This document shows positions 14,706 through 50,622 of a stretch of DNA of 64,000 nucleotides, piece by piece. The translations under genes and the position numbers were made by a program. The stretch's first letter is position 1. Every line of letters starts with the position of its first letter. A model generated the notes under the pieces. It saw nothing but the letters and a program-made list of their open reading frames with translations, was not told the DNA's origin and made no database searches. Source of the stretch: a virus (Duplodnaviria; Heunggongvirae; Uroviricota; Caudoviricetes); IMG/VR virus record IMGVR_UViG_3300043436_004120, positions 1 through 64,000 of that record; one strand, 5' to 3'.

Positions 14706-14876
14706 GGATCGGTAGCTTATATGGTTAAAGCACAAAGCCGGCATACAACACTTTTGAATGTAGATAGTTGACCCTGGCCCTGCAACGGCGTAATCAGCTA
14801 CAATTCAGCCTGAGTTCGAATACATGGTCGTGTGTTGTATAATTTTAGGAAGCAGGTTCGAGTCCTGCCCGATCCA
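14706..14876 (+). tRNA. interrupted tRNA-like gene (canonical 5' acceptor/D-arm and 3' T-arm/acceptor separated by a ~100-nt insertion)
   Basis: 5' GGATCGG-TA-GCTT..AAGC and 3' GCAGG-TTCGAGT-CCTGC-CCGATCC-A-CCA pair perfectly, yet no standard anticodon arm can be folded between them. Confidence 0.35.
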
Positions 14877-16170: not shown

Positions 16171-16255
16171 GGGACATTACTCAAGTGGTTACGAGAGCGG
16201 TTTGCTAAACCGTCGTTGAGAAATCGGCGCACAGGTTCGAATCCTGTATGTCCCG
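16171..16255 (+). tRNA. tRNA-Ser(GCT), type II
   Basis: Acceptor GGGACAT/ATGTCCC, anticodon stem GCGGT/ACCGT with loop TTGCTAA, long variable arm, discriminator G. Confidence 0.7.
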
Positions 16256-16271
16256 CCAAACAAAGGAATTT

Positions 16272-16535
16272 ATGCCTTGCATAAAATGTGCTAATGGTAA
16301 GTGGAAGTATGGTGAAGGTGGTCGCTGTCAGTTTGATACCCTAAAAGCGTGTCGAGCAGCAGAAGCCGCTATTCATGCTAAGCCTAAGAACAATGCAGCA
16401 GGTAGTGTAATGGAAGCACCCGACTCTGTGAAAGTCGTAGACCGAGATCGAAACTCGACTGTCTGCCCAAAGGATAACCATGACCGAAATTCAGACACTC
16501 TTAGACAAAGAAGCCAATCTTGCCAATCGCCGTGA
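16272..16535 (+). CDS. hypothetical Cys-containing protein
   Basis: The track ORF begins at 16248 inside the tRNA; the internal ATG at 16272 has an AAGGAA SD and is the likelier start. Confidence 0.4.
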   Translation: MPCIKCANGKWKYGEGGRCQFDTLKACRAAEAAIHAKPKNNAAGSVMEAPDSVKVVDRDRNSTVCPKDNHDRNSDTLRQRSQSCQSP

Positions 16536-20131: not shown

Positions 20132-20239
20132 CCATATTTTAGCACACTGCTCGCCACTTAATAAATAAATGCAGAGCCGCACCGGTCACGCTTTCTGCGG
20201 GTAACTAGAAACACCTGGCCAGGGTTTAATCTAGCTTGG

Positions 20240-20690
20240 GTAGTGTGCTAAAATATGGTTGTATGAAGCAAAAAGAAAAGAATTCTGGACGCGGGTTCGA
20301 CTCCCGCCAGCTCCACCATAAGCGCGCGCAGAGGGTAGTATGTAAGCCATAAGTACATTGGCTGAGGACTGGGATTCCCTTCCTACTAACAGTAGGGCGC
20401 TTTTGATGGGGCTGCCTTGGTTTCGACAGGGTTACAAGTAAGCAAGTGGACAACTAGGTAATGCAGAAGCCTTAGGATTGGGGATTCCCGGTCGCAGAAG
20501 CAAAACAAAAATAAACGCAAACGATCAAGTTTACGCTTTAGCAGCTTAATTGCCGCTTAGGGTTTGGCCAGTTCCTCGTAACAGAATACTGGCACTATAG
20601 TTTAGCACTTTAGAAGCCCACACCTTGTCGACTAGGGTATCTAGAACGTGGTTACGACGCCTGTCCGTTAGAGTGCTAAACTATATTAAA
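20240..20690 (+). ncRNA. ssrA: circularly permuted (two-piece) tmRNA (ssrA): acceptor piece ~20240-20318 ending GGACGCGGGTTCGACTCCCGCCAGCTCCACCA; coding piece from ~20408 (GGGGCTGCCTTGGTTTCGACAGGG) with tag reading frame 20517-20549 (A)ANDQVYALAA
   Basis: The 3' segment is near-identical to the E. coli tmRNA 3' end but lies UPSTREAM of the GGGGCUG...UUCGAC 5' segment; tag ORF GCAAACGATCAAGTTTACGCTTTAGCAGCTTAA; two ~16-bp long-range stems (20141/20241 and 20596/20676) flank the pieces. Confidence 0.8.
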
Positions 20691-20697
20691 GGAACCC

Positions 20698-21291
20698 ATG
20701 AACAAAGACAATTATATCGACCCTAAGTTGTTTGGTCAGGACAAGTATAGTAATAGCTTTTCAAAGCCAGTTGCACAGCTTCATGAGTTTTACCTAAGCG
20801 GCCCTGTGCTGGATGCTGAAGAATACATTGAATGGTTTGATACAATCCGTAATGCATCGGAGATTGATACCATTCGCATTTACATTAACTCACCTGGCGG
20901 TGACTTGTATACCACACTACAGTTCCTACGAGTAATGTCGGACACACCTGCTACTATTGTTACCAGTGTAGAGGGTGCTTGCATGAGTGCAGCTACCATG
21001 ATCTTCTTACACGGTCACACGCATGAAATCACGCCACACAGCTTGTTTATGTTTCACAACTATAGTGCCGGAACATTTGGCAAAGGTGGCGAAATGTACG
21101 ATCAGCTACAGTTTGAGCGCAAGTGGTCAGAGAACTTTATGCGAGCAGTGTACCGCGACTTTTTAGCTGAAGATGAAATTCAAAGTATGCTCAACAACCG
21201 TGACATTTGGATGACCTCAGATGAGGTTGCACAGCGGCTAGAAAAACTGCAAGAGGCTCGTGCACAACAAGCCAAAGAGTCCAAAGAATAA
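20698..21291 (+). CDS. clpP: ClpP-family serine protease
   Basis: 197 aa; YINSPGGD motif, Ser in GACMSAAT, His in FMFHNYS, C-terminal Asp region; strong SD AAAGGAA upstream; directly follows the tmRNA. Confidence 0.65.
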   Translation: MNKDNYIDPKLFGQDKYSNSFSKPVAQLHEFYLSGPVLDAEEYIEWFDTIRNASEIDTIRIYINSPGGDLYTTLQFLRVMSDTPATIVTSVEGACMSAATMIFLHGHTHEITPHSLFMFHNYSAGTFGKGGEMYDQLQFERKWSENFMRAVYRDFLAEDEIQSMLNNRDIWMTSDEVAQRLEKLQEARAQQAKESKE

Positions 21292-21296
21292 ACAGT

Positions 21297-21385
21297 GGGT
21301 GGTAATGCAGCGGGGTTGGTCCTGCGACTGGCCTTGAAAACCAGGTTCCGTTAACGCGGATGGGGTTCGACTCCTCTGCCACCCG
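21297..21385 (+). tRNA. selC-like / allo-tRNA with 8-bp acceptor and 4-bp T-stem (8/4), long variable arm, discriminator G, anticodon TGA (Ser, UCA codon)
   Basis: Acceptor GGGTGGTA/TGCCACCC (8 bp, perfect); anticodon hairpin CTGG-CCTTGAAAA-CCAG aligns with E. coli selC CTGGA-CTTCAAA-TCCAG; T-arm GGGG-TTCGACT-CCTC; 89 nt. Confidence 0.55.
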
Positions 21386-21458
21386 CCATAGTTAAGTATA
21401 TTTGGGGCTGCTAGACGCCGTGGGTTGTCACTCACTTTAAGCGTGAATATACTTAATT

Positions 21459-21782
21459 ATGGCAATATCATTTAAAAATATCAAAGACCCTAAACTGGGG
21501 TTAACCGACACACTAACATTTGGCAAACTAAAAGGCTGCCGTGTATGTGATGTTGCACAAGATCACTACGAATACTTGATCTGGGCTGAAAAGTCTGGTT
21601 ATGTTAAATATCAAGCAGAAGTTGTTGCACTAATCCAAGAGCAGGCTAGTTTTGCGGCTTGGCAGATCAATGAAGCTGAAGAAGTTGCCCCTTACATGGA
21701 CGGCAACAAATATGAATACTTGGCAGAAATTGCCAGCCGTCAAGACTATGATACCAGTTTTGATGACGATGTACCTTTTTAA
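21459..21782 (+). CDS. hypothetical protein (N-terminal MAISFKN shared with ORF 40335)
   Basis: 107 aa; first 20 nt of the coding sequence almost identical to the start of 40335..40976. Confidence 0.45.
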   Translation: MAISFKNIKDPKLGLTDTLTFGKLKGCRVCDVAQDHYEYLIWAEKSGYVKYQAEVVALIQEQASFAAWQINEAEEVAPYMDGNKYEYLAEIASRQDYDTSFDDDVPF

Positions 21783-24721: not shown

Positions 24722-25245
24722 TGGCTAATATCTTTTTTGCAAGTGACCATCACTTTCACCATGCCAACATACTCACATTCAAGCGTCAGGATGGTACTCT
24801 AGTGCGTGAGTTTGATGACGTACATCACATGAACGAGCACATGGTCAACTGCCATAACTCAGTGGTTAAGCCACATGACAAGGTGTACTTTTTAGGTGAC
24901 GTTAGTATGCAAACTACCATTGAAGCACTAGAAATCCTACGTCGCATGAATGGCGAAAAAGTTTTAGTTAAGGGCAACCACGATCTTGCCAAGCCTGGCA
25001 GGTACATGGAACACTTCAAAGACATTCGCGGTTCGCATCAATTTGATGGAATGATTTTAACACACGTTCCAATTCACCCCGAAAGCCTAGCCCGCTGGGG
25101 TTTAAATGTACACGGGCACTTACACCACAACGTGGTAAAACTACCACTAGCACAGATTCCGGACAAACGATACTTTAATGTAAGCATGGAACGAATCAAT
25201 TACACACCAATTTCACTAGAAGAAGTTAAAAAACAATGTCGCTAA
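24721..25245 (+). CDS. metallophosphoesterase (calcineurin-like phosphatase)
   Basis: SDHHFHH, GDVSM, GNHD and HGHLHH metal-ligand motifs. Confidence 0.55.
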   Translation: MANIFFASDHHFHHANILTFKRQDGTLVREFDDVHHMNEHMVNCHNSVVKPHDKVYFLGDVSMQTTIEALEILRRMNGEKVLVKGNHDLAKPGRYMEHFKDIRGSHQFDGMILTHVPIHPESLARWGLNVHGHLHHNVVKLPLAQIPDKRYFNVSMERINYTPISLEEVKKQCR

Positions 25246-25688
25246 CATTACAAAACTTAGAGAGTGCACTGGCCGGTGAATCAATGGCGCACACAAAGTA
25301 CTTGTACTTTGCACGTATTGCCAGAGAAGACGGCTTTGAAGATGTTGCAAAACACTTCGAGCACACCGCAGCACAAGAACTAAAACATGCCTGGGGTCAT
25401 TTAGAACTTTTAATCGGTCGTCCTAGTACCAAAGTTTGTCTAGAAAAAGCTATTGCTGGCGAAACTTACGAGTACACAGAAATGTACCCACGCATGGAAG
25501 AACAAGCAGAACGCGAAAACAACGAATCCGCTTTGCTAGAAGCTCGTCAACAAATTGCAGAATCGCAAGAACACGCCGAGCAGTTCCAAGCCGTGCTAAA
25601 GAAAGCAGAAAAGCGTTTTAGTGCACTAAAGCGTGTGGAACAACGCCATGCAGAAGCATATCAACAAGTTTGGGAAACAGTAAAATGA
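25236..25688 (+). CDS. rubrerythrin/ferritin-like diiron protein
   Basis: Two ExxH-containing helices (EQELKHAWGHLE and a second E-rich helix); followed by a rubredoxin. Confidence 0.5.
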   Translation: MSLTLQNLESALAGESMAHTKYLYFARIAREDGFEDVAKHFEHTAAQELKHAWGHLELLIGRPSTKVCLEKAIAGETYEYTEMYPRMEEQAERENNESALLEARQQIAESQEHAEQFQAVLKKAEKRFSALKRVEQRHAEAYQQVWETVK

Positions 25689-25819
25689 CACACATTTGCA
25701 TCGTATGTGACCATGTTCACGATCCAGAAACAGAAGGTCGTTGGGAAGATTTGCCTGACAATTTTGAGTGCCCTGAATGCGGGGTAGGCAAGGAAGACTA
25801 TGTTGAGTTCACAGATTGA
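25685..25819 (+). CDS. rub: rubredoxin (44 aa; not in the ORF track)
   Basis: MTHICIVCDHVHDPETEGRWEDLPDNFECPECGVGKEDYVEF: CxxC...CPxCG rubredoxin signature; ATGA-overlapped with the upstream gene. Confidence 0.7.
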   Translation: MTHICIVCDHVHDPETEGRWEDLPDNFECPECGVGKEDYVEFTD

Positions 25820-50184: not shown

Positions 50185-50622
50185 ATGGAAGAACTAAAAA
50201 TGGCCCTTAAAAAGGCTTTTGCAACAACCTATGGCTTCCTAGTAAAAGCAGAAAACTTTCACTGGAATGTAGTAGGCCCAAACTTTGTACAACATCACGA
50301 ATTGTTTGGAAAAATATACGACGAGGTAGATGATGCGCTTGATGACTTTGCTGAGCGTGTGCGCGCTTTGCGCTGCTATGTACCTGCTAGCTTTAGCCAA
50401 CTTAAAGATCATTCGCTTGTTTTGGATACACTGGAAGTACTGCCGCCTACCGAAATGGTACGTACGCTATACGTTGACAACGGCAAAGTACATATCGCGT
50501 TGATGGAAGCCTATGCACTAGCTGAATCAATTGGTGAGCATGGTTTAAGTGCTTTTTTAAGTGAACGTATCGATGCACATCGTAAACACGGCTGGATGCT
50601 TTATTCAACAATGCAACCGTAA
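50185..50622 (+). CDS. dps: Dps-like ferritin (DNA-binding protein from starved cells family)
   Basis: HWNVVGPNFVQHHELFGKIYDEVDDALDDFAERVRAL matches the Dps ferroxidase-site signature. Confidence 0.7.
   Translation: MEELKMALKKAFATTYGFLVKAENFHWNVVGPNFVQHHELFGKIYDEVDDALDDFAERVRALRCYVPASFSQLKDHSLVLDTLEVLPPTEMVRTLYVDNGKVHIALMEAYALAESIGEHGLSAFLSERIDAHRKHGWMLYSTMQP

Follow-up and report, generated by a model that had tools for sequence, protein, structure and literature searches.

The 89-nucleotide (nt) gene at positions 21297-21385 (+ strand) of a caudoviricete genome fragment, IMG/VR record IMGVR_UViG_3300043436_004120, very probably encodes a functional elongator serine tRNA of the 8/4 type, tRNA-Ser(UGA), which lies in the array of tRNA genes carried by a T5-like phage and would decode UCN serine codons without any recoding. 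The gene sits in a same-strand island of tRNA genes and a tmRNA within the window, by which we mean the whole 64,000-nt stretch analysed (positions 1 to 64,000 of that record). Its sequence is GGGUGGUAAUGCAGCGGGGUUGGUCCUGCGACUGGCCUUGAAAACCAGGUUCCGUUAACGCGGAUGGGGUUCGACUCCUCUGCCACCCG, followed directly by an encoded CCA. The parts of the molecule, with nucleotides numbered from its first base and counts taken from an alignment of 68 relatives described below, are as follows.

21297-21385, + strand: (8/4) tRNA-Ser(UGA), class II, 89 nt including the discriminator G, from the sequence and a covariance model.
21297-21304, + strand: 5' strand of the acceptor stem (nt 1-8), which pairs with 21377-21384.
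21305-21309, + strand: 5-nt linker AUGCA (nt 9-13) from the acceptor stem to the D-stem, invariant in 68 of 68 sequences.
21310-21325, + strand: D-arm, with a 6-bp stem (nt 14-19:24-29) and the tetraloop UUGG, from covariation.
21328-21344, + strand: anticodon arm, with the stem nt 32-35:45-48, a C36.A44 mismatch and the loop CUUGAAA; two of the stem pairs covary.
21347-21360, + strand: variable arm, with a 5-bp stem (nt 51-55:60-64) and a tetraloop, from covariation; the invariant G49-U50 and U65 border it on either side.
21362-21376, + strand: T-arm, with the 4-bp stem GGGG/CCUC and the loop UUCGACU; the stem is invariant, partly fixed by the search patterns.
21377-21384, + strand: 3' strand of the acceptor stem (nt 81-88), from pair counts in the 68 sequences.
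21386-21388, + strand: encoded 3' CCA, from the sequence.

The anticodon UGA (Ser) occupies 21335-21337 within the 7-nt loop CUUGAAA, and the discriminator G lies at 21385; a preliminary description of this DNA had reported an 89-nt tRNA with this anticodon, this discriminator and a long variable hairpin, and all of these are present in the sequence as described. A covariance model built from 66 homologues, with the window sequence and its nearest relative left out, recovers 21297-21385 with exact ends at 108 bits (E ~2e-24 in the 64-kb window), and the runner-up of this model in the window is a canonical tRNA-Ser(GCU) at 29 bits. Judged by these scores, a chance match would be excluded by a wide margin, the signal lying far beyond chance. 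At default settings, ARAGORN lists 27 genes in the window and 21297-21385 is not among them; with a relaxed threshold, it calls the locus tRNA-Ser(tga) with truncated ends. The top Rfam family for the locus is selenocysteine tRNA (tRNA-Sec, RF01852), which outcompetes the general tRNA model there and scores 37.9 bits against a gathering score of 47.

A megablast search of the 2-kb neighbourhood against deposited phages gave no match, and the relatives were found by sensitive blastn and pattern scans. The blastn search returned an unannotated copy of 86% identity in Pseudomonas phage PHB09 (NC_073677, 14394-14484), copies of ~80% identity in cluster-L mycobacteriophages (annotated as tRNA-Ser in Finemlucis, unannotated in Crossroads and CELFI), and a more distant tRNA-Ser(CGA) in Bacteriophage 4A. 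Copies were then gathered from two pattern scans of IMG/VR and a scan of bacterial genomes, and the family counts given here hold among the matches listed by these searches. Counted in this way, the family comprises at least 218 copies and at least 87 distinct sequences, almost all from uncultivated phage contigs, and it is rare in cultured phages; many of the contigs are syntenic with the window at 70-99% DNA identity. The anticodon is UGA in 124 of 124 copies among the matches listed of the first IMG/VR scan, which left the anticodon free. Among the 218 copies listed, the discriminator is G in 193, and CCA is encoded after it in 188.

The bacterial scan covered 185,579 species genomes and yielded 46 matches, 40 of them chance matches inside protein-coding genes and 6 of them real. 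Three of the real copies are in Rhodoferax assemblies, and the others are on small tRNA-rich contigs of metagenome-assembled genomes. The copy in Rhodoferax antarcticus ANT.BR (L245; NZ_MSYM01000020.1, 246-2939 plus flanks), which has no encoded CCA, lies within an array of 21 or more tRNA genes beside an open reading frame (ORF) for a 634-aa ParB-like protein, which suggests a plasmid, a prophage or another mobile element that carries the array. Since the real bacterial copies are few and lie in tRNA-rich contigs or arrays, the family therefore belongs to the tRNA arrays of phages and mobile elements.

The fold was judged on 68 distinct 89-nt members of the family, for which two explicit structures were scored. 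An 8/4 structure with a 6-bp D-stem has 96% of its cells paired and 15 pairs that change on both sides, whereas every slid control of the same structure has only 46-56% of cells paired. In the acceptor stem, all eight pairs form in 100% of the sequences, and six of the eight show changes on both sides. The eighth pair (nt 8:nt 81, or 8:65 in canonical numbering) is A-U in 39 sequences, G-C in 29 and broken in none; it is U-A in the Rhodoferax copies, and more distantly related 8/4 serine tRNAs have U-A or C-G. In each of the two collection scans, one base of 8:65 was fixed and its partner left free, and the partner never disagreed. The pair that would complete a canonical T-stem, 49:65, forms in 0 of the 68 sequences. 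Covariation thus shows the predicted fold to be 8/4, an 8-bp acceptor stem on a 4-bp T-stem with 12 bp in total, and the architecture proposed in the preliminary description is borne out by the family, although the acceptor stem is not “perfect” as claimed there: in the window it reads GGGUGGUA/UGCCACCC and consists of seven Watson-Crick pairs and one U7.G wobble.

The other arms refine the picture. The 6-bp D-stem is paired in 99.8% of cells and contains three doubly compensated pairs (C-G/G-C, G-U/U-G and G-C/C-G/U-A), and its tetraloop is NNGG across the family, with the GG invariant. A different D-stem, 10-14:26-30 (U10-G30 to G14-C26, 5 bp with an 11-nt loop), is acceptable when judged on the window sequence alone; it was rejected on the alignment, where it has 26 broken cells and zero compensation. 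The variable stem is 97.4% paired and four of its five pairs change on both sides; in the window, the hairpin CCGU-UAAC-GCGG is extended by U51-A64, which pairs too, giving a stem of 5 bp, a correction to the first description. The 4-bp T-stem stands, with one G.U pair in the window. The anticodon stem has four Watson-Crick pairs and a mismatch adjoining them: nt 36:44 (standard 31:39) is C.A in 66 of the 68 sequences and C-G in both mycobacteriophage copies, and the would-be sixth pair is an A opposite a G. In addition, G1-C72 is found in 67 and G2-C71 in 68 of the 68 aligned sequences.

While the helices vary freely, a set of junction nucleotides does not vary at all: A9-U10-G11-C12-A13, G30-A31, G49-U50, U65 and the GG of the D-loop are the same in 68 of 68 sequences, across phages of Mycobacterium, Pseudomonas and probable betaproteobacteria. 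This pattern suggests a conserved tertiary core. Because these columns never vary, the partners of the junction nucleotides cannot be deduced from them; it is speculation that pairs such as G11.U50 and C12-G49 could form. Taken as a whole, the family points to selection for function, because at least 218 copies exist, their helices vary by compensation, and their junctions and loops are invariant.

What the tRNA would do is suggested by its place in the array. According to ARAGORN, the 26 other tRNAs of the window cover all 20 amino acids, and none of them reads UCN; the only other serine tRNA in the array, tRNA-Ser(GCU) at 16171-16258, is a canonical 7/5 molecule that covers AGY. UCN codons account for 471 of the 988 serine codons (~48%) in the window ORFs, with UCA used more often than UCC, UCG or UCU. 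The same arrangement recurs in the relatives: among the matches listed, tRNA-Ser(GCU) is also present in 118 of the 218 family-bearing loci and a second serine tRNA with an NGA anticodon in 12, with a median of 13 tRNAs per fragment. The family tRNA would thus almost always be the only UCN decoder in its array.

In the mechanism that we propose, the tRNA would be transcribed along with the array and its ends processed, the CCA being already encoded. Host SerRS would then serylate it via the long variable arm, G73, and G1-C72/G2-C71, while the anticodon would not be read. Delivery of the Ser-tRNA by EF-Tu is proposed because the acceptor/T branch has 12 bp rather than 13; EF-Tu accepts a 12-bp branch, and tRNA-Sec has 13 bp. 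UCA would be read as serine, and the other UCN codons would be read by wobble at U34. The combination of serine identity elements with a serine anticodon argues for such standard decoding and against recoding. We infer every step, from transcription to decoding, from established tRNA biology and from the E. coli assays of other allo-tRNAs by Mukai et al. The SerRS identity set is known to consist of the long variable arm, G73 and G1-C72/G2-C71, with the anticodon ignored (PMC7609411).

Molecules of this kind are not without precedent. (8/4) tRNA-Ser have already been reported in phage tRNA clusters and placed in the allo-tRNA group, and in that study they, too, surfaced as matches below threshold to the tRNA-Sec model of Rfam (Mukai et al. 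2017 NAR, PMC5389517). Compared by description only, the present family has the same 8+4 = 12-bp branch, long Sec-like D-stem with a tetraloop, long variable arm, G73 (the published description gives G73 or U73), serine anticodon and location in phage tRNA clusters (PMC5389517); the allo-tRNA affiliation suggested in the preliminary description therefore holds. A longer anticodon stem, another allo-tRNA trait, is not seen here, where the stem has four Watson-Crick pairs and 31:39 is C.A in 66 of 68 sequences, and the paper gives that trait for the groups in general without requiring it of the tRNA-Ser subgroup. What may distinguish this family, set beside those descriptions, is the invariant AUGCA linker before the D-stem. 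Other allo-tRNAs, of 8/4 or 9/3 type, are serylated with high efficiency and serve in translation on the E. coli ribosome (PMC5389517; PMC7609411), and serylation by SerRS and activity in translation are presumed for this family by analogy.

Several points weigh against our assignment. The function of this tRNA and of its family is deduced from conservation, and the codon counts come from a crude ORF set. Each collection scan fixed one side of 8:65, which means that the sampling of this pair was not unbiased. The anticodon stem has only four Watson-Crick pairs besides the conserved C.A mismatch, and the AUGCA linker has no verifiable known counterpart. Moreover, folding of the single sequence gives z = -1.72 against shuffles, which is not significant, and its minimum free energy (MFE) structure is not a cloverleaf. 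Lastly, the covariance scores of the window, 108 bits for the 8/4 model and 107.5 bits for a 7/5 model of the same alignment, do not separate the two folds, because sequence conservation dominates them. Single-sequence scores cannot split the folds, and the decision between them therefore rests on family covariation alone.

Of the alternatives, the one that survives best, though it is unlikely, would come on top of the decoding role and leave that role in place. The unusual body of the molecule (the paired position 8, the Sec-like D-arm, the invariant junction and the C.A at 31:39) may be an adaptation against host tRNA-targeting defence or turnover, or against a phage-induced attack on host tRNA-Ser. 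Such a design might conceivably keep the sole UCN decoder of the phage working while anticodon nucleases, or other immunity directed at tRNAs, cleave or deplete host tRNA-Ser(NGA); in another form of the idea, covered by the same low estimate, host tRNA-handling enzymes that recognise U8 or the D-loop would act on the tRNA poorly. It is consistent with this that tRNA-Ser(NGA) is a reported target of mycobacterial VapC and that insensitivity to nucleases has been proposed for phage tRNAs (PMC10264068). In addition, the family is essentially confined to the arrays of phages and mobile elements, with 6 real copies among the 185,579 bacterial species genomes, and its junction nucleotides stay the same in phages whose hosts differ widely. 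However, the anticodon loop CUUGAAA, which is the same in E. coli tRNA-Ser(UGA), is unaltered, and it is here that the nucleases in question cut. A Pfam comparison of the 56 window ORFs of at least 130 aa brought up no nuclease or defence gene, and 8/4 tRNA-Ser have been reported in some bacteria too (PMC5389517). We keep the probability of this explanation low.

One may argue that the gene is simply a canonical 7/5 class II tRNA-Ser in which 49:65 happens to be a U.U mismatch and position 8 an A. The covariance model scores the window nearly as high under this fold. The 8/4 fold with the 6-bp D-stem is the cloverleaf of lowest energy (-35.6 kcal/mol, against -34.4 and -29.7 kcal/mol for the two 7/5 versions), but it lies only 1.2 kcal/mol below the 7/5 version that keeps this D-arm. 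The mean energies of the family rank the 8/4 and 7/5 folds in the same order, and the strong preference for a 7/5 fold that the preliminary description had held would speak against it is not found. A 7/5 molecule is very unlikely and is contradicted by the covariation, in that 49:65 never pairs, 8:65 switches between A-U and G-C without once being broken and takes U-A and C-G too in relatives, and the D-arm, unlike that of tRNA-Ser, shows the covariation of a 6-bp stem closed by a tetraloop. Canonical 7/5 tRNA-Ser(UGA) resembles the family in its CUUGAAA loop, long variable arm, G73, G1-C72/G2-C71 and presumed UCN decoding, but it has an unpaired U8, a D-stem of 3-4 bp with a large D-loop and a T-stem of 5 bp, whereas the molecules described here have A8 or G8 paired with 65, a D-stem of 6 bp with a tetraloop, and a T-stem of 4 bp.

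It is still less probable that the gene encodes a selenocysteine tRNA or a recoding allo-tRNA, which would insert selenocysteine, or serine at codons of other meaning. The molecule does share with bacterial tRNA-Sec (RF01852) an 8-bp acceptor stem, a 6-bp D-stem with a 4-nt loop, a long variable arm and G73, as well as the T-loop UUCGACU, which is also that of E. coli selC. Moreover, tRNA-Sec is its top Rfam family, the long D-stem with a tetraloop is a feature recognised by SelA (PMC7609411; PMC7590224), and most allo-tRNAs carry non-serine anticodons (PMC5389517). However, tRNA-Sec has a 5-bp T-stem (8/5, a 13-bp branch), the anticodon UCA that reads UGA, and a dependence on SelA and SelB, whereas the branch here is 12 bp, the anticodon is UGA in every copy among those listed, the Rfam score is under the gathering threshold, and the tRNA fills the otherwise vacant UCN slot of its array. 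SelA, SelB, SelD and SerRS have no Pfam match among the 56 window ORFs of at least 130 aa (24 of which are without any Pfam match), a search that concerns the phage side only. The label “selC-like” in the preliminary description is thus apt for the shape, namely the long D-stem with a tetraloop, the extended variable arm and the discriminator G73, and not for the branch, the anticodon or the Rfam score, and the link to recoding drawn there does not agree with serine identity elements joined to a serine anticodon that is UGA in all 124 copies listed. The non-serine allo-tRNAs (8/4 and 9/3) of Acidobacteria, Clostridia and Proteobacteria have a similar overall architecture and a similar presumed SerRS identity, but their anticodons correspond to 35 different codons, and they are regarded as missense or nonsense suppressors or as perhaps non-translational (PMC5389517), whereas this family, which has only UGA among the copies listed from the anticodon-free scan, would decode serine codons as serine. 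Selenocysteine insertion and missense recoding are largely refuted. Separately, among the ARAGORN labels in the family-bearing IMG/VR arrays are two CUA tRNAs (“tRNA-Pyl”) and one UUA tRNA (“tRNA-Stop”), which could act as suppressors in some of the related phages.

A relic without function, whether a decayed tRNA or a selC pseudogene, the latter raised in the preliminary description, is just as improbable: default ARAGORN rejects the gene and other tRNA genes of the island look damaged (a tRNA-His at 16396-16469 and a split tRNA at 14706-14876), but all helices are intact, CCA is encoded, the place after a ClpP gene is conserved in relatives, and at least 218 copies are kept by compensatory substitutions.

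Two features flank the functional elongator tRNA-Ser(UGA) that we favour.

20698-21291, + strand: ORF for a ClpP-like protease (Pfam CLP_protease, 49.5 bits).
21386-21463, + strand: trailer hairpin with an 18-bp stem (MFE -28.5 kcal/mol, z = -4.8, 0 of 200 shuffles as good).

The first of these ends 5 nt upstream of the tRNA gene, which agrees with the placement straight after ClpP in the preliminary description; its top tblastn match is the Clp protease of Xanthomonas phage XacN1 (40% identity, 2e-39), and the order of ClpP and then tRNA is preserved in the relatives L011, L019 and L074. The trailer hairpin spans the distance from the CCA of the tRNA to the AUGG start of the ORF at 21459-21782, and because it begins and ends there it would occlude the 3' end of this tRNA as well as the next start codon. 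A hairpin occupies the same site in four relatives (L025, L011, L021 and L074), with arms that are different yet complementary, and the interior of three of these resembles a T-arm (GCUGGUUUGAGUCCGGC). The hairpin could be a processing element, a translational-control element or a tRNA remnant. A scan for promoters and terminators around the tRNA gene gave counts at the level expected from shuffles.

Other members of the island are worth recording. The phage tmRNA at 20212-20640 has the tag peptide ANDQVYALAA according to ARAGORN and matches both betaproteobacterial and permuted models (RF01850, 95 bits; RF04321, 120 bits), which, together with the Rhodoferax matches, hints at a betaproteobacterial host. 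The tRNA-His(GUG) at 16396-16469 has an Rfam score of only 30.9 bits and mismatches at C4xU69 and A5xG68 of the acceptor stem and at C49xA65, where U8-A65 could pair instead. Its closest IMG/VR relatives are 7/5 tRNAs of the ordinary kind, apart from an unusual T-loop, AUCGNUA; an automated 8/4 classing of tRNA-His genes proved unreliable on account of G-1 numbering and was set aside for the manual comparison, by which the relatives are 7/5. Rather than an (8/4) tRNA-His, it may represent a copy in decay, and in this the window, whose tRNA-His is not convincingly 8/4, is unlike the alpha-proteobacterial phage clusters described by Mukai et al. (PMC5389517). At 14706-14876, a region on which ARAGORN is silent, an Rfam tRNA match of 40.3 bits spans 171 nt. 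It is otherwise a good tRNA, with the acceptor stem GGAUCGG/CCGAUCC and an encoded CCA, and its anticodon-loop region is replaced by ~106 nt in which a long inverted repeat is present (CAUACAACAC...GUGUUGUAUA); this is an intron-like insertion, or else the gene is disrupted.

Farther along, Pfam matches identify a rubrerythrin-like protein, a rubredoxin and a separate ferritin-like protein at 25236-25819 and 50185-50619, an unusual oxidative-stress or iron protein cluster near the tRNA island. A T5-like replication module extends over 28000-50000 and includes an NAD-dependent DNA ligase, a DnaB-like helicase, a primase, a family A polymerase, an SNF2-type helicase, an SbcCD-like pair, a flap endonuclease, a dUTPase and a class II ribonucleotide reductase, and it fits relatives whose contigs are ~100-130 kb long.

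In summary, the tRNA combines an ordinary function with an unusual but published shape, and knowledge of the genetic code is unchanged by it. New here is the independent, quantitative backing that covariation gives to the 6-bp D-stem and to the 8/4 fold. New, too, are the findings on how large and how uniform the family is, and its invariant junctions (AUGCA, GA, GU and U), which give structural study something to explain. Also new are the near-exclusive role as UCN decoder in phage arrays, the rarity in cultured phages and the rate at which ARAGORN misses these genes: at default settings, it calls tRNA-Ser(tga) in 5 of the 87 distinct members among the matches listed and misses 82 (94%). Counts of serine UCN decoders in phage tRNA censuses are probably too low, and surveys of phage tRNA repertoires and analyses of codon compensation could be biased by a missing serine tRNA. 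In particular, it has been argued that phages avoid tRNA-Ser(NGA) because VapC-type nucleases cleave such tRNAs (PMC10264068). Given that default ARAGORN misses 94% of the members, the claimed avoidance may in part be an annotation blind spot. The practical weight of the finding thus lies in annotation, for a family that is common in uncultivated phages (at least 218 contigs) and that would usually supply the only UCN decoder of its array.

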